This document shows, one piece after another, positions 23,636 to 61,599 of a stretch of DNA of 64,000 bases. Every line of letters begins with the position of its first letter. Position 1 is the stretch's first letter. The notes beneath the pieces are model-generated. The model did no database searches. It was given only the letters and a program-made list of their open reading frames with translations, and was not told the origin of the DNA. The stretch spans positions 1 to 64,000 of IMG/VR virus record IMGVR_UViG_3300042898_000786, one strand, 5' to 3'. The DNA is from a virus. The translations under genes and the position numbers were made by a program.

Positions 23636-26600
23636 ATGATGAATGAAGAACTAGACGGACTAGTATCTCTTGGAATTGAGCGAGGTAGGGATTTTCTCTA
23701 TATCTCGAACATATTAAAAGAAGAAGGCTATTCTGAAGCTGATATTAAATCAGCAGAACAGTTTTATAATCAAAAAAAAAAATCCCAATCGGACTCTACA
23801 TCCGCTTCGAAGCCAGCGATGGATTCTGGGGCTTCGGGATTGGGCGGTCCTCGCGTTGGAAAGTCAGGATTGGTTTCTGGCTTTTCAGAAGCATTTAAGG
23901 AAGTACAAGGTCAGCAAGTAGCTGTTCAGCAGGCTTCGGTAGTAGCCAACGAAAGAGAGGCACTAGGTGCTATTCAATTTGGCCTTACCGGTAAAGCTCC
24001 TCTTTCCTACCAACAGGAGAAACTTCTCGTTGCCGACAAAGAGAAAATTAGTTCTGAGTTTGAAGCTCAAAAGAGTCAATCTGCAAAGATATTCTTAGCT
24101 AATAAAGAAGCTGGTAACGACCCATATCAAGACCCGGAGTTTCAGGCTGCTAAGCAGAAAGAGAATGAATTTGTTGAGCGTGGAGCGAATGTAAATCGTC
24201 AGCTTCACCCAGAGTTACCTGAGGACGCGTTCGTGGCTTACAACGACCGTGGTGAGGCCAGAGAGACTCCTTTGTCTGAGACTAAGTACTTACAGTCAGC
24301 TATTAAAGTTATCCCCGGATTACAGCAAGATATAGACTTTGCTCGCATACAAGAGCGTAAGCAAGCTGAAGACGCAGTAGAAGCTGAAGAATTTCGTAAG
24401 TCTTACGAGTTTGGAAATATTCCAGTTATAAGTAAAGCTGCTAATTTAGGAATTGCCGTGGCGTCAGGACTCACGGATATGGTGGCTAATGTCGCTGCAT
24501 TTATTACAGAGCCCTTTGCTGGGACTACTGATGAGTACGAAGGTATTATACCAGAGGTAGCTCAAAGCATATACGAAAGTGCTAAGTTTACCTCTAGTGC
24601 TATGCGACAGCAGCGTGGCGTTAACCTAGAGAACTACGGACTTACAGCTTCACAGCAGGAAAAGGACCCTTTCTCCCTTTGGGCTGAAGGAGATATTGAG
24701 GGCGGAAGCAAGTCTTTAGCTGTTATGGTTGCTGACGCTGCTTTGTTTAGCCGCGCAATTGGCGCACTATATGGAGTTGGAGGCACCGCCGCAAGAACAC
24801 AAGTAGGCCAAGCAGTTTTGTCGACAGGTAAGGAAGGCGCTCAAGGTGTTGTGAATAACCTATCTCGCAACGTAGCAACTAATGTAGCTGATAGTCCTGC
24901 TATGTTTGGCGCTATGGCTACACTATCCGCTCAGCAGTCTTGGGACGCTGTTAAAGGCCGTGATGACCTTACTCTTTCTGAGAAGTTGTTTTATCAGTCT
25001 GTTGGGATTGCAGCAAATACCCTCACTGAAGCTCTTAACGTAGACGACCTACGGCTTGTAACAAAGGGACTTCCTTCTGCCCAGCGAGAAATAGCTCTTA
25101 AATCGTTCCGTGGTACTGTTAAAAGCTACTTTGATGATGTAGCTAAGGTTGGTACGCCAGAGGCATTTGAAGAGACTTTAAACTTCTACGCTGATGCTTT
25201 TGCTAAGTATGTGATTGACGGAGAGTTACCAACTATTACTGACCCGTTGTCTAGCATTGCTGTAGGCTTCCTAGCGCCATCACTTAATGTTACGGCCACC
25301 TATGCTCCTGCTATGATTGAAACAGCCCTCGCTACCACTCCGTGGAAGATGGCTAAGACCAAGGAGTTTGAACGCAATCGTAAGCTTGCTGACGAACGCG
25401 GCCGAATTGTAGAGGCTCTTGCTAATGAGAACCTACCGCAAAACGAAAAGAAAATACTTCAAAAAGCTCTTAACAATATTGAGACAGCTATTGAAGACCA
25501 AGAGCGCAAGGACTTTGAGTTCTATTCCGGTATGCAGTATGCTGATGCTAATGAGATTCTAAACATCCACGGACAGATTGGAACAAAAGTACAGCAGTAT
25601 AAAAAGACACGCTCTAAAGAGCTACGTACTGTTCTTGAGGCTGAGATTCGTGGACTTTATGGACGTAAAGTAGAAATAGAGAATAATTATGATAGTACGC
25701 AAAAATCAGGGATATCAAGTTCTGTCTTCCAAGGGCAAGCCACTGAGCAAGCCAAGCCTGAGCAAGGGGCAAGCCAAGAAACGATTGAAGCAAGTGGAGT
25801 TCTTCAAGTATCTACAGAAGAAGGCCCAGAAGTAACAGCAGAGCAGGAGACAACACGCCAAGAAGCATCTAAGGGCGCGTCAGAGGAGTTTGCTGTAGGG
25901 GCTGTTACTCCGGGTAAAGTAATTACAGAGGGATTAGCCCGTGTAATGAACAACATATTTAATGCGACTAAAGCTATTGTTCGTGGCGGCAAGGTGCAGT
26001 TCCACTATAGCCAAGAGTCTATTGCTGATGCTAACGAGGTTACTCGTTCTCAGAAGGCCAAAAACCCAAAGATTTTCTTTGACGGATTTTACGACCGCAC
26101 TAACAAAGTCTTTCACGTATATATCCCAACTGCTGCCGACAGCGCTAAGGTTGTTAAGCAAGAGGATGGTAAGTACGCTCTTGTAGACCCAAAGTTCGCA
26201 GGTCAGGTAATCAAGACATACGACGACCGCACTACAGCATTCCAAGCCAAGCAGAAGTACGACGAGAACTACATTAAGTTCGCCACTAGTAAGGCGCGTC
26301 ACGAAGCTATCCACCCAGTCATTGATGCTCTTATTCTTGAGGATAAGCCTATCCTTGATGAGAGCGGTAATCAAGTTGTAAATAACGCTGGCGAAAAGCA
26401 GTTTATCCCTAATAGCTTCCGTCAGTTCCTGTACGATAACATAGTAAGCCTGTACAGCTCTTCTCCTGACGCTCAGCGCATCTTCGATAACTTCCTGGAC
26501 CCTTACATACAAAGTGGCGCTACGAGCGCTACAATGCAGCGTGAGGCAATCACGGAGTTCTTAGCTGCTATGGCAGACGAGAAGAAGTTTAAGCAGCTCG

Positions 26601-29600
26601 ACAGAGGATTTGTGCAGAAAGTTAAAGACATCGTCAATGAGTTATTAGTTCGTGCCGGTATACGTGACATCAGCATATCAACGGATGACGATTTGTATAC
26701 TGTGGCTCGTGCGTTTAAGACCGCTATGGCCCTTGGCGTAGAGGTAAAGGTTCAGAAGGGCGGCTGGAAGAACTATACTCCAGTTGGGGAGGTATTCTCT
26801 GTGGGTATGTTAGATGGTCTTAAGGCTTCTAGTCTTACCGACAAACGTCTAAGAAGCATTATTACCGCTGGTAAGTTTGGTATGCTCACCGGGCAGAATC
26901 CCCGTGGTACCAAGTTTCCAGAGGAAGTTCGTGAGAAGTTTAACCGAGAAGCAGAAGCTTGGCTTAAATCTCGTGGGTACGAAGCCATTCCTATCCTTGG
27001 TAAGTTTGAAGGCATTGCAGAGAACAGTTTCCTAGTCCCTAACCTCACTTCTGACGATGCTCTTTTGTTTTCTCGTGAATTTAACCAAGAGGCTGTTGCA
27101 CATAACTCTGGATTCATTCACTTCGATGGTTCATTTGAGCCGCGTAGGCCAGACAACAACGTATTCGGGGTAAAGTACGAAGACAAAGACACCGACTACT
27201 TCTCAGCCTTGCGAACTAAGGATGGCAAACTAACAGCATTTAAGGTAGACTACAACTGGGATGTGCGTCTTAACTACCGCGCCTTAGAGGATGGCCTTAC
27301 TAACCAAATTGACTTCTCTATCTCTATCCCAGAAGGTCAGACATACGCTGAGTTCTTCGACTCTATCGGTGACCAGTCAATGCGAGCTCAGGCTACAATG
27401 CTTCAACTACTCGCTGAGAAGGTCGGATACAGCAAGCCTATTCTATTCTCTACAAAAGGGACTACTTCTTTTGACGCAACAAAGGATTACACCATCTTTA
27501 ACGTAGCGGAAGACCGTGAGCTTAACGAGTCTTTCGGTTACTTCGCTAACGCACTATCTACTATTATCTCTAAGGAGAATATGGGGCTTTACCGCTCGCT
27601 ACTTGATGAGACTAAGAAAAACTTCCCAGAGCTCGTAGAGTCTAAGAAGAAAGAAGTTAAAGAAAAGTTTAATAACTACGATTTTGCCCCCGACCCACAG
27701 GCTAGTGCCGAGGCAGCCAGCGGCGACAGTTTTGTCGAGCGTTTAGCCATCAAGGCTGCACTTGACGAGAAAATGGTTGAATTCTTTAAAACCAACGAAA
27801 CAGACTTCGAGGCTCTTCGCAAGAACTGGGAGACCAACAAGAAACTAATTGGTGAAGCCATCAACGTAGACATCACGGACATCGTCCCGAATATGAAGAT
27901 TGACGGCGTGATGGAAATACTTGCTAGTCCGACTCGCGATATCTATGCCGCAACTGAAGTTGCTACTCGGCTAAAAAGAACGGCTCTCGGCGGCGGCGAA
28001 TCCCTAACTGTAGATGAAGCTCGGTTGTCGATTCAGGAACTACAGAATGTTGCCGCAGTCGTTGGTCAGGATGCTGTTGTGGGACTCAATGGATTTGTAG
28101 CCAGCAAAGACTTGGTAGATGGCTTAGCTTTAATCTTAGTCGAGGTTGGTAAAACAAAAGACGGCACCTCTACTTTTAAGTTCAGTGAGAGCCCCGACTC
28201 TGCCACAAAGGGTGACGAGCTTCGTCAAAGACTAAGGAATATTGATTATGATGAGCTCTACGACTTGGCTCGTGGTTTCTGGATTGGCGCCTCGATGTCA
28301 AATCCAGAATTTGTCAGAGAATATCAGAACTCTAATTTTGACGCTGAAATAGAAAAATTAAAAAGCTTTCTTGAAGAAACAGTTAATAATCTTAAAGATG
28401 TTGCCGCGAATACCCTTAGGGGGTCCAATATAAGGAAAGCACTGGAGGTGATAGATGAATACAATAGTAGAATATTGACCGAAATAGAAAGTTCTCTCGG
28501 TAGGGCGTTTAACCCTTTTTCAAGCTATGAGATTCTATACAATTCATACAACGACATCGCCTATGACGCTAAAGATTTTTTTGAGGCGGAGTTTAACAGA
28601 CGTATAAACGACCCACGTCGTTTAATGAATATGTCAATCAGGGGCGCAATAATAGAGATTAGCGAACTAGATACGTTTACTATTGAAGATGCGAAGGCTT
28701 ACATAGCTTCAGAGCTATCAAATTCTGCGAATAATTTTGGTAAAATGAATACATCGGATGCAGTGTACGCAGATATTGATGGTTATTCAGTAGGCGGGGC
28801 AATGTATACCTTAAGTCCTGACGCAAATTATTACAGATTGCGGGATTTTATTGGAAACGATAATCTTAGCTCTGTTGTATCTGACTATGGTCCGTTTAGT
28901 TACCGCCTAGGTGACGTTATAGGAGAAGCTAATTCTGCTATATCCCGAAGAACCGCCGAAGCTTCAAAGACAACACGATACAAGTTACCAGAGGCGGATG
29001 ACTTCACCTCCGCTAGAATAGAAGTATTCATTCCTAAGCTTAACGATACATATGTGGTTACTGGTACTTACTATGATGGTGATGTTGGCGTAGCGTTTAG
29101 CTCTACAACTACAGGATATGACCTTAAAGACCCAGGGGCGGCTTTATCTGTTATGCCGGAAGTTATCAAGGCTATTAGCCGTATGTTCCCAGAGCGCGAC
29201 GTTAAATCGATTTCATTCAGCCCTATTGATGCCACCAGTAACAAACGTCAAGGTGGCGAGCTTCGTCGTGGTGTTTACCGTATGTTCGCTCAGCGCCTGT
29301 TCGGTAATTACTTCCCAGTAGGGTTAACATCAGATGATGAGAACGTCATTCCAATTCCTTACGCGTTCCGAAGCACTGAAAATACTAAGCCGGTGTACGA
29401 GGATATGGCGAACAAGCAAATCAACCGACCTAGGGACATTGACTTCGCTATCTCTAACTTTGAGAACATCCCACAAGAAGTTACTCAGGGTCTAAATGCC
29501 ATTAGCAATGCTGTTGCGTTCGCTTCACAATCATCATTCGCAAATAAGCTATTGTTCAAGGATGAGCTTCAGAATCGATTTAAGTCTTACGAGAAAGAGC

Positions 29601-32600
29601 TTAAGAAGAAGTACGGTATCAAATCGTTCAAAGTTGGGGGCAAAAAGAAGTTTGTTGATGCTGGCCTGAAGAACTACTTGGTTGACGCTTACGTATACGA
29701 GACACTCGTAGCGATACAGGCATACCCAGATGCTCTAGGATGGTACGACTACAAGACACGTGCTGCTATGGCAATTATGAGCTTGATTCACCCCGAGCTA
29801 AATACTGACCCAATGGCGGCTGTCGCATTTAAGATTGCTGTAGCTGTTACGTCGAACGGAAATAAGGTATTTGATAACTTCAAAGAAGCCGACCGTCAGT
29901 ACGAGTACTTTAAGAAGAATGGTAATTTCGATGGCGAAAAGAGCATTGGAACTCAGAGTGCTGGAATCAAGTCTACTCTTAAGCTTGTAAACAACGTACT
30001 TGACCGTATGACGATGGAGGAGTTTAACAGCTTCCTCACGTCTAAGTTTCGTGCTGGCGACTTGAAGTACGTCAGCAAAGGAAAGAGTAAAACATTACTT
30101 AGCGGATTTAACGTAAACACCGAGGTATACGGAGCCTCTATCTTCGGTCCTAAGATTGGGAACGGTTTCTTTATGAATCTTAACGGCCAGTTTGACCAGC
30201 TCACAATGGACCGATGGTTTATGCGTCAGTACGGTCGTCTTACCGGAACTCTTATTGAGCGTGATGCTAATAAGATTGCAAGCGGTAAAGTTCGTCTTAA
30301 GGGTGCGGTTACCGCTCTAAGTTCTAAAGAGAAGTCTATCCTTACTAAGGTTATACCGGGCTTCGCTAAAATGAGCGTAGACGAAAGAGCTACTGCGATT
30401 AATAAGGTTTCAATAGTAAAGGAGAAGCGTGATATGCTTTCATCAACCGATGCTTTGAATGAGCTTCGGAAGGCCGGAAACAACCTAGCTAAAAATCTGT
30501 CTGGTGAAGTCGAAGCACCGAATGGCGGAACTCAGCGTGACTTTATCATCGACGTCTTCAACGTGGCGCAGAAGGAGCTCAAGGAGAAGTACGGAATTGA
30601 TATCACGATTGCCGACCTGCAAGCTGTAAACTGGTATCCAGAGAAGGCTTTATATCAGACGTTCCAAGATGGGCGTGACGAAGAAGATGGCTCAGTGGAG
30701 ACTAGCGACAACGAACAGCCCGACTATGAAAGTGCTGCCGTTAAGTTGGCTCAAGAGCGTGGAGTAACTAATCAACAAATAGAAAATGCAAGAGCAAGAA
30801 CAAATAGTGGAGAACGTGCTGCTGAATCTAACGGACTCCGAGCTGAACTCATTGGCGGAGACAGTGTCAAAGCTAGTGCCGAAGAAATCCGTCGTAAAAT
30901 CCTCAGCGTCAAAGCTGGGCAACAAGAGCCTGTAGACTTATCTATAAGCGTTCAACCTCCTAAGTTCGAGATTGAAGGCAAGACGATTCGTGGCTTTGCT
31001 GAGCGTATGGCTGATTCTAATATTCAGTTGTACTCAGATATCATTGAGAACCCAGAGAACTATTACACACCACAGACTCTAGAAGAGATTCAGTCTCAGC
31101 TTGTGATTATGACTATTCCTGAGCTTCTAGATAAGATGACTACCGATAAGGTTACCGCCCTTAGTGGAAGCATAAAGGTTGATTTGGCTGACGAAGATAA
31201 CATATCAGTACTTTTAGGTGCTGAGCTTATTAAGAGGTATTCTGCTGAAGGAGATGACGTTAAGCTTCTGGAGATGATTGAGCGTATGTCTAAGATGGGA
31301 ACTACCGTCGGACGTATGTTACGTCACTTTGGAGAGATTAAAAATGCTACACATATTGGAATCGTACAGACTGTGGTGGCTATGGCTCAACGTGCAGGAA
31401 GGCGTCTTACCGACACTCAAATAACGAAGCTAAACACTTTAGCCCAAGAGTTATTTGCTTTGCAGGTAGAGGGTAAAGATATGATGTCAGAAGCCCTTAG
31501 GGCTCCGAGGCCTGCGCTTGACAAGGCAATCAAAGAGAAAGAGACGCAGTTGAAAATAGCTACAAAAAGGCTTGATGACTTTATCTCAACAGCAGTACCA
31601 AAGAGCGCTCAAGATATATTCGGAGGTCTAATCAAAGGAAACCTTCTTACTCCTGTTTCTCAAGTAGTTAACGTATTTGCCAACCTAGCTAATGTGTTTA
31701 CACGTCAGTTTTTAGTAAATCCTCCAGCTGTTCTTATTGATGCTGTCCGGGCTTTTGCATCCGGTAAGCCTCGAGAGATTACCCCTAGTGTAGCTGCATT
31801 TTTCTTTGGAGTAAAGCGTGCTGCCTTTGTGGGGATACCGGAAGCCGTAGAGTATATTTTTAAAGGAACACGCCCAACTGAGGAGACGTTCCAATATGAA
31901 TCTCGGCAAGGGTTTCTACCGATTCAAGCTATGATTGCGGCACTAAGCGACACTAAGGTTGCAGATGCTATCAATAAGGCTGCTGGTAAAGAGGTAATTA
32001 AATCAGACCAACTTGCCCGTCTTGAAGATGGTAGCATATCATTCTCCGATAGGTTAAAGAAGATTACTGAGGCTACATTCGGAATTGCTCCTGAAGTTAT
32101 GTTCCGACTACTTACTCTTGGTGACCGGCCATTCGCACGTTTCCAAGAAGGCATTGAGATATATCGTCGCGGTAAAAAGCTTGGCCTGCGTGGCGAAGCG
32201 CTTGACAACTTCATAAAGCATCCAGACCCTGCTACTATCAAAGCTGGTAGAGAGGCTGGTCGTGAGATTACTTATCAGGCTGACACATCATTCTCTACTA
32301 CTGTACAGAAAATACTAAATACAATAGGAAATACTAAGCTCGGTAATTTCTTGGTGACGATTATCGTACCGTACTCAAAGACTCCTTCTAACATTATCTA
32401 TGACACCCTTAACTACGTAGCTCCCCCGGTAGCTATTTTCCGGGCCGTGAAGGCCGCTAAGGACCGTCGCTTCGACCAGTTTGCCACGTTGCTAGGTAAG
32501 TCTTTTGTAGGTTTTACCCTATACGCTTTTGCTGATTTCTTAGTCAAGAACGGCTTAGCTACTGCTGGGGTTGGAGACGACGAGAAGAAAGAAAAGGAGA

Positions 32601-33583
32601 TGTTCTATAGCTTGTTCCCTTATAACAGTATCAACCTAAGTGGATTACGCAGGTATATTAACGGAGAGGGTACTGATTTACGTGATGACGACGTTTTCAT
32701 AGACTACTCTAAAGCTGGACCTATAGGTGCTATTATTGGAGCACGTGCAGCCTACTGGTCTAACAAGGATGCGAAGCCAGTAACTATTGCCAACGAGGCG
32801 GAGAACTACGGTGCTATCGCTACAATGTACTTAAGCGAGACGATAGGAACTACGATGTCTTCGTTTCAATTTATGGCTCAACAATCATTTTTGGCTAATA
32901 CAAATCAAATCCTAGAGCTGTTGACCACCAAGGGAGACATTGAGCCTGACTACATCCTTAATAGTTTGTTCAAGACAACCAGTGCTGCTATTCTTCCGAA
33001 TACCTTGACTGCTCTTAACAGGGCTACCCGCACGAAGCTTCCAGACTTGTACGACAAGAACAGCCTATATAATAGTTTGACAAACGTCATTAAAGACCGT
33101 ACATTCAATACTGATGGCATCCCGGCAAAGTTTAATATCTGGGGTGATGCTGTAGACCAAACGCCAGTAGGTGCAGACCCAGTATTCTATAACTTGTTTG
33201 ACCCGATTCGATATCAGAAGCGTCAGTACAGGCCCGAGCAACTTGAGGTGTTCCGTCTTTACGAAGACCTAGGGCAAGACACCAAGGTGATACCCACTAT
33301 ACCTCGTGAGCTTATGTCGCGCAAGTTCAAGGATACGGAGACTGAAATTGAGTATACGTTTACAAACGAAGAGGTCAACGCTATGATGGAAAAGCTCGGT
33401 AAAGAACGGTCAAAGGCTATGGCTGAGCTCATCAAAGAAGACTGGTATAAGAGCTACAATGACGAAGATAAGGCTTACGAATTGGAGTACCTTTACAAAG
33501 ATATTTCTAAGAACGGAGAATGGAAGCAAATGCTCTACAACTTTATGGAAACAGCAAAACAAGAAAACAGAATCAAAGAATGA
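23636..33583 (+). CDS. giant polyvalent ejection protein (3315 aa)
   Basis: HEAIH zincin motif (26300-26314), GMLTGQNP..ENSFLVP DUF3293-like domain, HhH-like GPKIG..TMDRW domain; TATATTTG box at 23612-23619. Confidence 0.7.
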   Translation: MMNEELDGLVSLGIERGRDFLYISNILKEEGYSEADIKSAEQFYNQKKKSQSDSTSASKPAMDSGASGLGGPRVGKSGLVSGFSEAFKEVQGQQVAVQQASVVANEREALGAIQFGLTGKAPLSYQQEKLLVADKEKISSEFEAQKSQSAKIFLANKEAGNDPYQDPEFQAAKQKENEFVERGANVNRQLHPELPEDAFVAYNDRGEARETPLSETKYLQSAIKVIPGLQQDIDFARIQERKQAEDAVEAEEFRKSYEFGNIPVISKAANLGIAVASGLTDMVANVAAFITEPFAGTTDEYEGIIPEVAQSIYESAKFTSSAMRQQRGVNLENYGLTASQQEKDPFSLWAEGDIEGGSKSLAVMVADAALFSRAIGALYGVGGTAARTQVGQAVLSTGKEGAQGVVNNLSRNVATNVADSPAMFGAMATLSAQQSWDAVKGRDDLTLSEKLFYQSVGIAANTLTEALNVDDLRLVTKGLPSAQREIALKSFRGTVKSYFDDVAKVGTPEAFEETLNFYADAFAKYVIDGELPTITDPLSSIAVGFLAPSLNVTATYAPAMIETALATTPWKMAKTKEFERNRKLADERGRIVEALANENLPQNEKKILQKALNNIETAIEDQERKDFEFYSGMQYADANEILNIHGQIGTKVQQYKKTRSKELRTVLEAEIRGLYGRKVEIENNYDSTQKSGISSSVFQGQATEQAKPEQGASQETIEASGVLQVSTEEGPEVTAEQETTRQEASKGASEEFAVGAVTPGKVITEGLARVMNNIFNATKAIVRGGKVQFHYSQESIADANEVTRSQKAKNPKIFFDGFYDRTNKVFHVYIPTAADSAKVVKQEDGKYALVDPKFAGQVIKTYDDRTTAFQAKQKYDENYIKFATSKARHEAIHPVIDALILEDKPILDESGNQVVNNAGEKQFIPNSFRQFLYDNIVSLYSSSPDAQRIFDNFLDPYIQSGATSATMQREAITEFLAAMADEKKFKQLDRGFVQKVKDIVNELLVRAGIRDISISTDDDLYTVARAFKTAMALGVEVKVQKGGWKNYTPVGEVFSVGMLDGLKASSLTDKRLRSIITAGKFGMLTGQNPRGTKFPEEVREKFNREAEAWLKSRGYEAIPILGKFEGIAENSFLVPNLTSDDALLFSREFNQEAVAHNSGFIHFDGSFEPRRPDNNVFGVKYEDKDTDYFSALRTKDGKLTAFKVDYNWDVRLNYRALEDGLTNQIDFSISIPEGQTYAEFFDSIGDQSMRAQATMLQLLAEKVGYSKPILFSTKGTTSFDATKDYTIFNVAEDRELNESFGYFANALSTIISKENMGLYRSLLDETKKNFPELVESKKKEVKEKFNNYDFAPDPQASAEAASGDSFVERLAIKAALDEKMVEFFKTNETDFEALRKNWETNKKLIGEAINVDITDIVPNMKIDGVMEILASPTRDIYAATEVATRLKRTALGGGESLTVDEARLSIQELQNVAAVVGQDAVVGLNGFVASKDLVDGLALILVEVGKTKDGTSTFKFSESPDSATKGDELRQRLRNIDYDELYDLARGFWIGASMSNPEFVREYQNSNFDAEIEKLKSFLEETVNNLKDVAANTLRGSNIRKALEVIDEYNSRILTEIESSLGRAFNPFSSYEILYNSYNDIAYDAKDFFEAEFNRRINDPRRLMNMSIRGAIIEISELDTFTIEDAKAYIASELSNSANNFGKMNTSDAVYADIDGYSVGGAMYTLSPDANYYRLRDFIGNDNLSSVVSDYGPFSYRLGDVIGEANSAISRRTAEASKTTRYKLPEADDFTSARIEVFIPKLNDTYVVTGTYYDGDVGVAFSSTTTGYDLKDPGAALSVMPEVIKAISRMFPERDVKSISFSPIDATSNKRQGGELRRGVYRMFAQRLFGNYFPVGLTSDDENVIPIPYAFRSTENTKPVYEDMANKQINRPRDIDFAISNFENIPQEVTQGLNAISNAVAFASQSSFANKLLFKDELQNRFKSYEKELKKKYGIKSFKVGGKKKFVDAGLKNYLVDAYVYETLVAIQAYPDALGWYDYKTRAAMAIMSLIHPELNTDPMAAVAFKIAVAVTSNGNKVFDNFKEADRQYEYFKKNGNFDGEKSIGTQSAGIKSTLKLVNNVLDRMTMEEFNSFLTSKFRAGDLKYVSKGKSKTLLSGFNVNTEVYGASIFGPKIGNGFFMNLNGQFDQLTMDRWFMRQYGRLTGTLIERDANKIASGKVRLKGAVTALSSKEKSILTKVIPGFAKMSVDERATAINKVSIVKEKRDMLSSTDALNELRKAGNNLAKNLSGEVEAPNGGTQRDFIIDVFNVAQKELKEKYGIDITIADLQAVNWYPEKALYQTFQDGRDEEDGSVETSDNEQPDYESAAVKLAQERGVTNQQIENARARTNSGERAAESNGLRAELIGGDSVKASAEEIRRKILSVKAGQQEPVDLSISVQPPKFEIEGKTIRGFAERMADSNIQLYSDIIENPENYYTPQTLEEIQSQLVIMTIPELLDKMTTDKVTALSGSIKVDLADEDNISVLLGAELIKRYSAEGDDVKLLEMIERMSKMGTTVGRMLRHFGEIKNATHIGIVQTVVAMAQRAGRRLTDTQITKLNTLAQELFALQVEGKDMMSEALRAPRPALDKAIKEKETQLKIATKRLDDFISTAVPKSAQDIFGGLIKGNLLTPVSQVVNVFANLANVFTRQFLVNPPAVLIDAVRAFASGKPREITPSVAAFFFGVKRAAFVGIPEAVEYIFKGTRPTEETFQYESRQGFLPIQAMIAALSDTKVADAINKAAGKEVIKSDQLARLEDGSISFSDRLKKITEATFGIAPEVMFRLLTLGDRPFARFQEGIEIYRRGKKLGLRGEALDNFIKHPDPATIKAGREAGREITYQADTSFSTTVQKILNTIGNTKLGNFLVTIIVPYSKTPSNIIYDTLNYVAPPVAIFRAVKAAKDRRFDQFATLLGKSFVGFTLYAFADFLVKNGLATAGVGDDEKKEKEMFYSLFPYNSINLSGLRRYINGEGTDLRDDDVFIDYSKAGPIGAIIGARAAYWSNKDAKPVTIANEAENYGAIATMYLSETIGTTMSSFQFMAQQSFLANTNQILELLTTKGDIEPDYILNSLFKTTSAAILPNTLTALNRATRTKLPDLYDKNSLYNSLTNVIKDRTFNTDGIPAKFNIWGDAVDQTPVGADPVFYNLFDPIRYQKRQYRPEQLEVFRLYEDLGQDTKVIPTIPRELMSRKFKDTETEIEYTFTNEEVNAMMEKLGKERSKAMAELIKEDWYKSYNDEDKAYELEYLYKDISKNGEWKQMLYNFMETAKQENRIKE
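25689..25835 (+). CDS. nested +1 frame small basic protein (48 aa)
   Basis: MIVRKNQGYQVLSSKGKPLSKPSLSKGQAKKRLKQVEFFKYLQKKAQK; AATAATT-ATG context; resembles small phage proteins ending KKRL.Q.E.FK. Confidence 0.55.
   Translation: MIVRKNQGYQVLSSKGKPLSKPSLSKGQAKKRLKQVEFFKYLQKKAQK
30786..30935 (+). CDS. possible nested +1 frame protein (49 aa)
   Basis: MQEQEQIVENVLLNLTDSELNSLAETVSKLVPKK...; preceded by ACAAATAGAAA. Confidence 0.35.
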   Translation: MQEQEQIVENVLLNLTDSELNSLAETVSKLVPKKSVVKSSASKLGNKSL

Positions 33584-43879: not shown

Positions 43880-44137
43880 TTTATTTGTCAACTTATTGGT
43901 TTATATTTTGGTTAGCGGTGTCAACCTATTGGTTTAATAACTAGATGATTTTTATACTGTAGGTATAAGTTTGGGCGGCTATAATCATCATTAACAACGA
44001 TAGAGCTTTATAATGCAAGATAAAGGGTTCATCTATATTCTGCCAAATCGGGGTTATCAAGGGTACATTTGGCAAATTATAGACAACAGCTCGGATGATT
44101 TCCGAATTAGTTCGTGACAAAAAACATAGCAGATTTG

Positions 44138-52017: not shown

Positions 52018-52227
52018 TTAAAGTTCTAAAACTGCTAGTGAAAGGTTGCCCTCTCGGTCAAACCATCCCTCCTTGATTAAGGCGGTGGCAGTTCGGCCAT
52101 AGTGGCCTTGAAGTTCCCAAGCCAAGCCACTACGGACTAGTTCGGCAAAGAGGCACACGACTTCTTGGTCGTTGAGTGCGCCTTGTTCGTATGCGATGAT
52201 GTTCGCGATTTGTGATGTGTTGTTCAT
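52018..52227 (-). CDS. conserved early phage protein
   Basis: IIAYEQG...LF.ELV.SGLAW.LQGHYGRTA. Confidence 0.75.
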   Translation of the reverse strand: MNNTSQIANIIAYEQGALNDQEVVCLFAELVRSGLAWELQGHYGRTATALIKEGWFDREGNLSLAVLEL

Positions 52228-52242
52228 ACTGATTATCTATTT

Positions 52243-52294
52243 GGTTAAGATGCCTCACGGCATTTCGGCTAATGTCAAGCCTCTTCAGTTAACC
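52243..52294 (-). ncRNA. type I hammerhead ribozyme (AUC site)
   Basis: GGUUAA CUGAAGA GGCU-UGACAUU-AGCC GAAA UGCC-GUGA-GGCA UC^ UUAACC. Confidence 0.9.
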
Positions 52295-52471
52295 TTTGTT
52301 TTGCTCCACAAACTTTTCTAAAATGTCGAGAAGTTCGTCACCACATTTGTCTAACCTATCTTGAAGTTCGGGCGAAAGGTCGCTTGACTCAAGGTTGAAT
52401 TCCTCGCACACTGAGTCGAACAGCAAATCAATTTGAGAGGTAAGGATTCCGTAGATATTTTCGTTTTTCAT
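52289..52471 (-). CDS. small acidic protein flanked by hammerheads
   Basis: 60 aa; stop TAA lies in stem I of the downstream ribozyme. Confidence 0.7.
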   Translation of the reverse strand: MKNENIYGILTSQIDLLFDSVCEEFNLESSDLSPELQDRLDKCGDELLDILEKFVEQNKG

Positions 52472-52486
52472 AATTTCTATTTGTTT

Positions 52487-52537
52487 GGTTAAGACCTACC
52501 GAAGTAGGTTTCGGGCATTAGCCCTCATCAGTTAACC
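52487..52537 (-). ncRNA. type I hammerhead ribozyme (GUC site)
   Basis: GGUUAA CUGAUGA GGGC-UAAU-GCCC GAAA CCUAC-UUCG-GUAGG UC^ UUAACC. Confidence 0.92.
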
Positions 52538-52716
52538 TGCCACTCAGTAAGCGTAGTCCAACCGAATGCCGTCACGATACCGCGCCTCTGAAGTTGTTCT
52601 AGAACTTTGTACTCTTTAGTGGTATCTGCACCCAAGACAGACTCTACGCTATAAAAGGGTATGTCGGTTGCGATGCCGTCAACATACTCGCGGAAAAAGA
52701 AATTGTAAGTGTTCAT
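52528..52716 (-). CDS. early hypothetical protein
   Basis: Stop TGA is the UGA of the ribozyme CUGA core. Confidence 0.6.
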   Translation of the reverse strand: MNTYNFFFREYVDGIATDIPFYSVESVLGADTTKEYKVLEQLQRRGIVTAFGWTTLTEWQVN

Positions 52717-53136: not shown

Positions 53137-53186
53137 TGAGAGGGCGTTTGGTCTCGAACCAACGGCAACTAAATTGCTACGCCCCC
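53137..53186 (-). ncRNA. anticodon-less tRNA-like element
   Basis: GGGGGCG UA GCAA-UUUAG-UUGC C GUUGG-UUCGAGA-CCAAA CGCCCUC UCA. Confidence 0.65.
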
Positions 53187-53189
53187 AAT

Positions 53190-53590
53190 TGAACATCAAC
53201 TTAGGGGTACCTTATCGTGTCGTTATGTGCAGTGATGCCGTGGTTCCACCGCAACGAGGTTGTCAGTCCTAAGAAGCACTAAGGAGCAGATGAGCATCGT
53301 TGTATCCGTGTAGCATATGTTCTAAGAACTCATACGACCAAGGTCGCTCCGCTACACATCAACAAACCCGAACTCCATCACCACTCAGTAGCCGTACGTA
53401 CATCAAAGTGCCGTGCGGTCATCTACCTAGTCGTGCGGAACTCCGCTCGCTTAGTGGTCACTATGGTTATGGGTTCAAGCCCCAAGGCACGCTTTTCGCT
53501 TACCATCTTCCTCGGCCCGCCTTACGGCTTCGTCCTCGAGGTGACCTCAACTCGTTTCCCTATTTGGGCGCAGTCGGTCGGTGACACTGC
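53190..53590 (-). ncRNA. putative large structured leader RNA
   Basis: GC-richer than flanks, many nested hairpins, no credible ORF, directly downstream of promoter. Confidence 0.55.
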
Positions 53591-53622
53591 AATACTACAA
53601 CAATCTAGATACGTTTGTCAAG
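53590..53622 (-). promoter_or_regulatory. early promoter
   Basis: TTGACA ... TAGTATTG on minus strand. Confidence 0.55.
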
Positions 53623-54545
53623 TGTTGTTCAAAAAATAATTGTAAGTTGCTGAGAATCAGCGAGAAAAATTTCCACTCTGAATTATAATGTGTCTCTTAC
53701 GCGTGTCATATTAATATACTAGCACCTGAGAACATAAGCCTAGCCTAGCAAGCACGTGCCGCTCTAGTATGCATTGAGCGTAGTGGGGGGAAGTGGGTTG
53801 AAGTGGGAGTAAGTGAGAGTGCTTAGGGGTAAGGTGTGGGGATTGTTGGAGGGTTCTGAGGTACTCGAACCATAACCCAAAACTAGTTGGCGGTAGGGTA
53901 GGAGCGGAGCCTACAACGGAGCCAATTAACATAATATATATTATAGGATGCTTTTGGACACCGATTGCAACTCCGATACTAGAGCGAGGTAGGTCAAGGA
54001 TAGTAGCACGTCCTAGTATGGCTACCAAAAGGCTAAAACATTGCAAGTGAATCATTTAACACGGAGGGGCATACGTTCAGCATTCCGTTTCGGTTCTTGG
54101 CTTGTAACGCTATTATAGTACGATAATCCCCACGGTACGTATAACTCAAACCAGAAATGCGATAACCGCATCCCGGAAGATTGCGTAATTCTGTTCAACA
54201 CATATGCTTGTCCTTTGCAATGTGAACAGATTCTTATGTTATTTCTCGGAAGCGCATAGTTGCGCCTTTGCAAACGTAGTAAAAGTTAGAGCCTTGTTTG
54301 CAGTATCCGAATCAAGCTTTGGCCGGCTCCTTTTGCGCGGGGCGGTTTGGCCGCCCGCTTTTTCCGCCGTCTTAAGCGTTCTATTCGTTTTCGGTATTAG
54401 AAGCTTGCAGTCTATTAAGAGGAAGCTCTGCTTTAGCGAAGTTATAGTTAAAAATCGACATTAGCAAGTTTTTTACACACACTTATAATAGTCGTTATCA
54501 ATTAGTTGACTAATAACCTACTAATTTAGTATGTGTTTATTCTGC

Positions 54546-59476: not shown

Positions 59477-61599
59477 TGGCAGGTATAAAAGACATAGAAG
59501 GATACGATGACTTCGTTATCAATATATGTCCGGATGGGACAGGTGAAGAAATTATAGAAATTTCACGTCTTTACATCCAGCTTCCTGAGATGCCAGACGA
59601 CAAACAGATTCTATTTAACGAGCTCCCCACAGACCAACAGTATTGGCGCAGGTTATCTGTCCCTAAGGAGCTGGAGCGAATCCGAACTATGGACGAGTGG
59701 TCCGAGGCTCCTAAGGAGTTTCGAGATAAGTTCACACCTTACATAGAGCGTGAGTTCTCGAGAAGGAAAAAAGGCTTGTGGTTTTATAACAACGGAACAC
59801 CGACGTATATCACCGGACACCACTATATGCTGTTGCAGTGGAGCAAGATGGACATAGGATACGCGAGCTATCTTGACTTCCAAAGAAAGCTATTCATACA
59901 CTACGCGGCCTGCGAAGCCGACCCCCGATGCATTGGACAGGTATACGTCAAGTGCCGCCGCTCCGGATATACCAATATATCCGCTTCTATACTTGTGGAC
60001 GAAGGCACGCAGGTGGCAGAGAAGCTTCTAGGAATCATATCAAAGACAGGTAAGGATGCTCAGGACAACGTCTTTATGAAGAAGGTGTTTCCTATGTTCC
60101 GTAGCTATCCGTTCTTCTTTAAGCCGGTACAGGATGGTACTACTAATCCACGTATGGAACTTGCGTTCCGTGAGCCATCTCAGAGAATCACGAAGAACAA
60201 CAAGGCTGTTATGATGACCCAGGCACTGGATACCGTCATCAACTGGAAGAACACAGTAAACAACGCCTACGACGGAGAAAAGCTCCACACTCTGTTTCTT
60301 GATGAGGCTTCAAAGCTAGAGAACCCATTGGATATAAATGAGTTATGGCGTATTCACAGGACCTGTCTTATCGTGGGAAAGAAAGTTGTCGGCAAGGCCC
60401 TCGTAGGCTCTACAGTTAACCCGCTCGATAAAGGCGGCTCGAACTATAAGAAGCTATACTACGATTCAGACCCAAAGAAGCGTAACGACAACGGAAGAAC
60501 AAAAAGCGGTCTTTATAAAATATTCATACCAGCGCACGAGGCCCTAGAGGGGTTCTTTGATATATACGGCCTACCGATAGTAAACGACCCTGATAAAGCT
60601 ACAAGTACTATGGAGGGAGACATCGTGAAAATAGGAGCTAAGACCTACCTGAATAACGAAAGGAAGGCCCTGATGAGCGACCCCTATGAGCTAAACGAAG
60701 TAATACGCCAGTTCCCTTGGACAGAAGAGGAGGCTTTTCGAGACTCCACAAAGACATCTCACTTTAATATATCTAAGATATACGAGCAGCTGGAGCACAA
60801 CAGCAGCCTCTTTCCCAATCCGGTGATACGTGGTAACTTCATATGGGCGAACGGCCAGCAGGATACTAAAGTGGTTTTCAGTCCAGACCCTAATGGTAAA
60901 TTCCACGTGTCTTGGCTTATGCCGTTTGAGGAGTCTAACAAGCAGTTGATACAAGGCGGTAAGCGCTCACCGGGTAATGTACTGCTCGGCGTCGGGGGGG
61001 TTGACTCCTACGATATCGACGAGACAGCAGACGGTCGTGGCTCTAAGGGCGCTTTCCATCTTTTTAATAAGTTCAATATGAACTATCCTAGCAATAGGTT
61101 TGTAGTGGAGTACGCTGAGCGACCAGAGCTAGCTCGTATTTTTTACGAGGATGTTCTCCTGACTGCTGTATACTACGGATACCCACTGCTAGTGGAAAAC
61201 AACAAGTATGGTATCGTGCGATACTTCGAGTCGCGGGGATATGATAACTATATTATGGATAGGCCATCACATCTAACGCCACCTAACCAGCGCGGCAGCG
61301 TTCGCACTAAAGGTGTTCCTTCTAACTCACAGGAATTCATACAGGCTCACGCTCAAGCGATTGAGGCATATCTCCACGAGCATATAGGATATAAAATGGA
61401 TACGGATGAGCACGGTAAGATGTATTTCAATAGGACACTACAGGACTGGATAGGATACAAGATTAGTGACCGTACTAAGTTTGACTTAACGATTAGTTCT
61501 GGCCTTGCTTTACTAGGTGCTCAGACAATAGTAAAGGAGAAAAGGCTAAGCGACACAACTGATAAAGTATTCTTTAGGCGCTACAAGGCGCGTTTCTAA
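59476..61599 (+). CDS. terL: terminase large subunit
   Basis: Walker A KCRRSGYT, Walker B LFLDEASK, GST, nuclease GGVDSYD, VENNK, FDLTISSGLAL. Confidence 0.9.
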   Translation: MAGIKDIEGYDDFVINICPDGTGEEIIEISRLYIQLPEMPDDKQILFNELPTDQQYWRRLSVPKELERIRTMDEWSEAPKEFRDKFTPYIEREFSRRKKGLWFYNNGTPTYITGHHYMLLQWSKMDIGYASYLDFQRKLFIHYAACEADPRCIGQVYVKCRRSGYTNISASILVDEGTQVAEKLLGIISKTGKDAQDNVFMKKVFPMFRSYPFFFKPVQDGTTNPRMELAFREPSQRITKNNKAVMMTQALDTVINWKNTVNNAYDGEKLHTLFLDEASKLENPLDINELWRIHRTCLIVGKKVVGKALVGSTVNPLDKGGSNYKKLYYDSDPKKRNDNGRTKSGLYKIFIPAHEALEGFFDIYGLPIVNDPDKATSTMEGDIVKIGAKTYLNNERKALMSDPYELNEVIRQFPWTEEEAFRDSTKTSHFNISKIYEQLEHNSSLFPNPVIRGNFIWANGQQDTKVVFSPDPNGKFHVSWLMPFEESNKQLIQGGKRSPGNVLLGVGGVDSYDIDETADGRGSKGAFHLFNKFNMNYPSNRFVVEYAERPELARIFYEDVLLTAVYYGYPLLVENNKYGIVRYFESRGYDNYIMDRPSHLTPPNQRGSVRTKGVPSNSQEFIQAHAQAIEAYLHEHIGYKMDTDEHGKMYFNRTLQDWIGYKISDRTKFDLTISSGLALLGAQTIVKEKRLSDTTDKVFFRRYKARF

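Follow-up and report, generated by a model that had tools for sequence, protein, structure and literature searches.

Hammerhead cleavage leaves a 5'-OH end and a 2',3'-cyclic phosphate end. RiboJ, an engineered part, was derived from a plant satellite RNA ribozyme. In insulators of the RiboJ type, attributed to Lou et al. 2012, a hammerhead before a gene reportedly removes the upstream RNA and gives the message a defined 5' end that is independent of context. Natural hammerheads flank single genes in phage and prophage transcripts, where single-gene mRNA processing was proposed as their role (Perreault et al. 2011; PMC3088659), and for three clusters of such phage hammerheads cleavage was demonstrated in vitro in ~2-kb transcripts (PMC3088659). 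In the haloviruses HF1 and HF2, a hammerhead named HHphage has a mapped 5' end within 3 nt of its cleavage site (PMC3088659). Type I hammerheads are also present in the intergenic UTRs of fungal and plant RNA viruses, where they support translation of the next ORF and an in vivo 5' end coincides with the cut (PMC13725137).

We analysed the first 64000 of the 75828 bases of a viral contig (hereafter the window), in which an earlier note had read two type I hammerheads on the minus strand, at 52537-52487 and 52294-52243, with stems II and III that differ between the copies. The sequence reads as claimed: stems II and III have diverged yet stay paired, all stems are Watson-Crick, and the predicted cleavage sites fall at the C17 positions. 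Hammerhead 1 (HH1; 52487..52537, minus strand, 51 nt) consists of stem I (GGUUAA at 52537-52532 paired with UUAACC at 52492-52487), the core CUGAUGA (52531-52525), the stem II hairpin GGGC-UAAU-GCCC (52524-52513), GAAA (52512-52509) and the stem III hairpin CCUAC-UUCG-GUAGG (52508-52495), followed by U16.1 at 52494 and C17 at 52493, and is predicted to cut at 52493/52492. Hammerhead 2 (HH2; 52243..52294, minus strand, 52 nt) has the same stem I (GGUUAA at 52294-52289 with UUAACC at 52248-52243, identical in 6/6 positions to that of HH1), the core CUGAAGA (52288-52282), the stem II hairpin GGCU-UGACAUU-AGCC (52281-52267), GAAA (52266-52263) and the stem III hairpin UGCC-GUGA-GGCA (52262-52251), with U16.1 at 52250, C17 at 52249 and a predicted cut at 52249/52248. 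Both copies satisfy the core requirement C3 U4 G5 A6 N7 G8 A9 and carry G12 A13 A14, the A15.1-U16.1 pair closing stem III and a non-G residue (C) at position 17. Stems I, II and III measure 6, 4 and 6 bp in HH1 and 6, 4 and 5 bp in HH2 around one junction, and both have the type I topology, with stem I open and stems II and III closed by loops.

Three approaches, namely a structural descriptor, a covariance model and folding, were applied to the two elements. The descriptor, which demanded the core, GAA, the A15.1-U16.1 pair, a non-G residue at 17 and three stems, matched exactly HH1 and HH2 in the window, compared with 0.01 matches per shuffle in 200 shuffles, and gave no further match across all 75,828 bases of the contig. 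Covariance model R1, built from 19 gap-free IMG/VR copies with the window copies left out, scored HH1 at 71.9 bits (E 1e-14) and HH2 at 55.6 bits (E 8e-11); the next match in the window reached 10 bits. The minimum-energy structure of each isolated element was the hammerhead shape (z = -3.1 and -2.7). Two other candidates in the window were rejected: a near-match, GGTTAACTGTAGAG at 60408-60421, is part of a plus-strand gene and does not fold as a hammerhead, and a weak R1 match at 43896-43928 is a direct repeat containing TTGACA rather than a ribozyme. In the latter region (43896-43945, minus strand), AAACCAATARGTTGACA occurs twice in tandem close upstream of a gene start; each copy has a TTGACA box, and the pair may be promoter or operator repeats.

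The earlier note had proposed a search with the Rfam hammerhead models. Such models did rank best when the search was run in E-value mode, with Hammerhead_HH9 (RF02275) at 18.6 bits against a cut-off of 52 for HH1, and RAGATH-1-hammerhead (RF03152) at 17.2 bits against a cut-off of 56.3 for HH2, but at the gathering thresholds of Rfam 15 no match was obtained in the window. The same held for about 50 copies of the family described below, in 12 related loci, none of which reached any Rfam gathering score. Since the family scores below these thresholds, such elements go unannotated.

Each hammerhead is interlocked with the genes on either side. Upstream of HH1 is a 62-aa ORF (52528..52716, minus strand) whose UGA stop codon (52530-52528) is within the HH1 core; homologues with 42% identity were found in two related loci, L009 and L035. 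Past the HH1 cleavage site come a 21-nt A-rich leader (52472..52492, minus strand), the first 6 nt of which are the 3' strand of stem I and which has A at -3, and then a 60-aa ORF (52289..52471, minus strand) that ends with a UAA stop codon in stem I of HH2 (52291-52289). This 60-aa ORF, for which we obtained 24 metagenomic homologues with 70-90% identity and no Pfam or PHROG family, reads as a real conserved hypothetical protein. HH2 is followed by its own 21-nt leader (52228..52248, minus strand), likewise with A at -3, and by a 69-aa DUF7417 gene (52018..52227, minus strand; PF24192, E 2.5e-23; phrog_3908). The A-rich 21-nt leaders that had been described ahead of each downstream gene are therefore present, at 52492-52472 and 52248-52228. 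Cleavage at both sites would release a 244-nt RNA (52249..52492, minus strand) composed of leader, 60-aa ORF and HH2, which would bear a 5'-OH and a 2',3'-cyclic phosphate. Two coding-strand hammerheads 244 nt apart and flanking a single 60-aa gene are the arrangement of a gene-punctuating phage cluster (Perreault 2011).

The phage nature of the contig is evident from its tail-fibre, baseplate and virion proteins, ribonucleotide reductase and primase-helicase. A virion protein is ~30% identical to proteins of Flavobacterium 'elemo' phages and Cellulophaga podoviruses, and the DNA runs with matching sequence were lake and freshwater metagenomes; blastn of the 5-kb region against cultured phages gave no match. 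The Bacteroidota -7 box, TAnnTTTG, occurs 77 times in the window, compared with 50 expected, and lies 10-30 nt upstream of many plus-strand gene starts (for example at 582-608, 10637, 12137, 15633, 21452, 23612, 55102, 55579 and 61606), an enrichment that supports a Bacteroidota host. Two further features of the contig were recorded. With an offset of 65,054 bases, the first and last 10.8 kb match at ~85% identity, as could result if the assembly had wrapped around and joined two strain variants, or if the tail-fibre region formed a large terminal duplication that has since diverged. A 3315-aa ORF (23636-33583, plus strand) matches no PHROG family at E<=1e-5; in podovirus-like phages, proteins of this giant size are frequently virion-borne polymerases or injection proteins.

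HH1 and HH2 occupy the coding strand within a series of minus-strand genes. The nearest candidate transcript starts are two sigma-70-like promoter matches at 53592..53709 (minus strand), which are consensus matches only. Between these sites and the ribozymes, consensus scans of the minus strand detected no terminator-like site, and from 53878 to 51046 they detected no Bacteroidota -7 box. Given the coding-strand position and the lack of an intervening terminator- or promoter-like site in these scans, the ribozymes are most naturally read as processing a polycistronic RNA. That the operon is an early one, as had been stated, is a guess from gene content, namely orphan genes of small size and, downstream of them, DUF932 and Api92-like genes. 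Of five RNA runs that contain small parts of the region, four do so as assembled contigs of relatives with 90-97% identity, which are strandless, without transcript ends and neutral as to whether cleavage occurs.

Upstream of the ribozyme-bearing genes and on the same strand, window positions 53170-53700 include ~450 nt free of ORFs, with a GC content of 52% compared with 44% for the genome and the two sigma-70-like matches ahead. The depth of contigs from four metatranscriptome runs peaks at 53216-53500. Neither Rfam, even at E<=1, nor blastn against cultured phages and the fetched loci gave a match for the 53170-53700 stretch, and its fold z-score was only -2.0; it may represent a phage non-coding RNA not yet described, or else a long leader.

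From their sequences, HH1 and HH2 belong to a large hammerhead family of aquatic phage contigs that occupies at least 220 loci in IMG/VR. A pattern scan with stem I and the core fixed and stems II and III free found at least 120 loci, with 154 matches (140 distinct) among the matches listed and up to five per locus. A second scan with stem I left free also found at least 120 loci, and among the matches listed there the stem I sequence was variable (GTCAAA, GGCTAA, GTAACA, GAACAA and others), GGTTAA being the commonest. When 138 distinct copies were aligned to R1, 98.8% of the cells were paired, compared with 75% after shuffling and 25-40% with slid partners, and double-sided changes were found in 12 of the 16 pairs (488 such cells compared with 123 in the shuffles). 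The carriers are probably phages of Bacteroidota. Among 185,579 species genomes the stem-I-fixed pattern occurred only seven times, and the two occurrences on large contigs were both in Chitinophagaceae (Bacteroidota).

The geometry of the family is tightly kept. In the pooled matches listed from both scans, 281 of the 295 copies have a stem I of 6 bp, stem I opens with a G-C pair in 96%, and the unpaired adenines flanking it are conserved at -1 in 97%, at +1 in 95% and at +2 in 80%. Stem II has 4 bp and a loop of the form U-N-A-N-U. The fixed stem geometry, the conserved adenines and the U-N-A-N-U loop together suggest a conserved tertiary contact between stems I and II in the family. A Watson-Crick pseudoknot between loop II and either flank was not found (2.80 compared with 2.84 with permuted loops).

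R1 also detected one copy in each of two cultured phages. In Cellulophaga phage phi19:3 the hammerhead is between gp051 and gp050 (NC_021789.1 21767-21819; L229), and in Flavobacterium phage vB_FspP_elemoE_10-3D it is between small genes (MT497078.1 27093-27154; L230); both are unannotated in their records. The elemoE record has a 35-aa opposite-strand ORF annotated across the ribozyme, and this ORF is probably spurious. No copy was detected by R1 in the Cellulophaga phages phi38:1, phi46:3 and Calle_3. One contig with at least four family hammerheads carries in addition a DUF805b RNA motif (RF02914; L069:250-282, minus strand), which scored 38.9 bits, above threshold.

The interlocking of ribozyme and genes is a property of the family. 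We surveyed 155 distinct junction contexts, of which 133 have a long upstream ORF and 143 a downstream ATG. For 129 of the 133, the stop codon of that ORF falls within the ribozyme or no more than 8 nt ahead of it: it is a UAA in stem I (42), a UGA in the core (24), a UAG whose G is the first G of stem I (18), a stop codon in the stem II region (7) or one that starts 2-8 nt ahead of stem I (the remaining 38). The downstream ATG is 18-24 nt past the cleavage site in 116 of the 143, and mostly 18-26 nt in a wider set. The leaders are rich in A and poor in G; 70% have A at -3, and 63-68% have it at -11 to -13. Bacteroidota lack Shine-Dalgarno recognition, and what tunes initiation there is the structure of the leader together with an A at -3 (PMC6847099); the composition of the family leaders fits these rules. 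The downstream genes are small (median 75 aa), and any Pfam family was found in only eight of 120, two of which encode ArdC anti-restriction proteins. With so few Pfam families downstream, and with DUF7417 homologues found both with and without an adjoining hammerhead, a fixed tie to one gene family was rejected.

We compared the junctions of the window with the orthologous junctions of three relatives. L238 has an extra ORF; ahead of its 60-aa gene homologue stands a hammerhead whose stem III is that of HH1 and whose stem II is different but paired. L239 has no hammerhead ahead of its 60-aa gene homologue, and has one before the DUF7417 orthologue in which stems II and III are both changed relative to HH2. 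In L009, a 62-aa homologue is followed by a hammerhead, a 507-aa gene and a second hammerhead (L009:645-698, minus strand), a terminator-like hairpin also lying between the two hammerheads. The second of these has the stem III of HH2 and a U4C change in its core (CCGAUGA), and stands directly before an orthologue of a 138-aa gene of the window. These comparisons indicate that the elements are conserved as a kind and yet have been gained, lost and re-associated with different cargo; the variant core in L009 and the missing copy in L239 further indicate that a hammerhead is dispensable at a given junction. Taken together, the canonical core, the scores from an independent model, the covariation in the family and the orthologous copies with changed but paired stems bear out the type I identification.

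On this sequence evidence, we consider it likely that HH1 and HH2 are functional self-cleaving type I hammerheads that split a multi-gene phage transcript into single-gene mRNAs, and the processing proposed by Perreault et al. (PMC3088659) is their most likely role. Both elements would be transcribed within a multi-gene minus-strand RNA, and each would fold as soon as it is made and cut co-transcriptionally after C17. Nearly the whole ribozyme would remain attached to the upstream message at its 3' side; this message would keep its stop codon and acquire a folded 3' terminus bearing a 2',3'-cyclic phosphate. The downstream message would start with a 5'-OH and a 21-nt A-rich, G-poor leader of a kind suited to Shine-Dalgarno-independent initiation, and would retain only six nucleotides of stem I, so that the leader would be short and unstructured. 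The type I topology fits gene punctuation: the ribozyme would be left upstream with the stop codon, and a short leader downstream. The predicted products are mRNAs for the 62-aa gene, for the 60-aa gene, and for DUF7417 and onward, and the stability and translation of these messages could be uncoupled from one another without a protein nuclease.

The identity of stem I in HH1 and HH2 raises the question of what happens to the 244-nt RNA between the two cuts (52492-52249). Its 5' end, UUAACC, is the strand that stem I of HH2 needs, so that the RNA could re-form HH2 and be ligated into a circular mRNA, or to other fragments, by the hammerhead itself or by an RtcB-type ligase; cleavage would leave the ends used in such a ligation, and the possibility was raised by Perreault et al. 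(PMC3088659). A tendency to share stem I within a genome is also seen elsewhere in the family. In the loci from the scan with stem I unconstrained, the within-locus copies had an identical stem I in 25 of 103 pairs, compared with 2.5% expected from the overall frequencies, and most of the remaining pairs were one or two stem I bases apart, while stems II and III differed freely. Sharing was seen in at least ten distinct lineages, although several of the loci are near-duplicate phage lineages and the within-locus pairs are thus not fully independent. It could be due to duplication, to a double load on stem I or to interchangeable ends, and the first two of these, in the form of intragenomic duplication or the combined constraint of stop codon and leader, would explain it without ligation. 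Moreover, circular or spliced products of clustered phage hammerheads have been sought and none was found (PMC3088659). We regard religation of the 244-nt RNA as unlikely. The wider proposal that RNAs between hammerheads become circular single-gene mRNAs (here a 244-nt circle encoding the 60-aa protein), with the genome-specific stem I as a compatibility code, seems to us decidedly improbable.

It would also be surprising if the motifs folded without cleaving efficiently in the cell and were structured intergenic elements (3' stabilisers or translation insulators) or decaying relics. Some properties of the two copies do point in this direction. Loop II has 4 nt in HH1 and 7 nt in HH2, compared with the family consensus of 5 nt, and if loop II makes a tertiary contact, the activity of HH1 and HH2 at cellular Mg2+ could be lower because their loops are atypical. 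When HH1 was folded with 20-nt flanks (52465-52560, minus strand), the minimum-energy structure paired upstream coding sequence with stem III (-25 kcal/mol), a competing fold in context. Among the relatives, the U4C change in L009 is expected to weaken catalysis, and the hammerhead before the 60-aa gene is present in L238 and absent from L239. However, stem II regions of 12 and 15 nt, the lengths in HH1 and HH2, recur in the family (in six and seven of the 295 listed copies respectively), all of the catalytic core positions are intact in both elements, and the core is conserved across the 138 distinct copies while the stems drift, a pattern expected only if catalysis is under selection.

Finally, it is highly improbable that the junction of stop codon, hammerhead and leader is mainly a DNA-level linker for the exchange of gene cassettes between phages: the cargo beside homologous hammerheads does vary (the 60-aa gene in the window, the 507-aa gene in L009 and the extra ORF in L238), and similarity to a relative's metatranscriptome contig breaks off at 52247, no more than 2 nt from a cleavage site, but the breakpoint between L009 and the window before the 138-aa gene is at the start codon, so that the hammerhead was rejected as the breakpoint there, compensatory stem changes and an invariant catalytic core are unneeded for recombination, and a linker could coexist with cleavage instead of replacing it.

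HH1 and HH2, read as self-cleaving elements that divide a phage message, are two good examples of a layout known in phages since 2011, well supported but ordinary. The useful additions are the family-level regularities and the blind spot in Rfam. Hundreds of type I hammerheads of aquatic phages escape the Rfam thresholds, and the family is also unannotated in two cultured-phage records. Three regularities, namely a stop codon in the ribozyme, a narrow range of leader lengths and a Bacteroidota-like leader composition, are testable and bear on the purpose of bacterial and phage hammerheads, and Cellulophaga phage phi19:3 offers a cultured system for testing them.

With respect to described hammerheads, the elements share the catalytic core and three-stem junction of the Rfam hammerhead models (clan CL00010 and RF03152), among them Hammerhead_1 (RF00163), HH9 (RF02275) and RAGATH-1, whose curated thresholds nevertheless miss this phage family. 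The type I hammerheads of RNA viruses (PMC13725137) resemble HH1 and HH2 in their topology, in their location in a short intergenic region and in a cut a few nucleotides before the next start codon, but they belong to eukaryotic RNA viruses and serve eukaryotic translation. HHphage of HF1 and HF2 is likewise a viral hammerhead, borne on an early polycistronic transcript and 13 nt ahead of a start codon; it differs in coming from an archaeal virus, in its variant core, and in being a single copy at the start of the transcript rather than an intergenic element. Perreault et al. 2011 (PMC3088659) do not discuss an overlap with the stop codon, a narrow leader of 18-26 nt or a genome-specific stem I. 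The clusters in that study are similar to the present one in having several cis-cleaving hammerheads on the coding strand between small phage genes that vary in identity and include anti-restriction genes, whereas the family of HH1 and HH2 is distinguished by its type I topology, by a fixed 6-bp open stem I with flanking conserved adenines and by its origin in aquatic phages, probably of Bacteroidota. Compared with RiboJ, which is engineered, HH1 and HH2 are natural, and in both cases a hammerhead is placed ahead of a gene.
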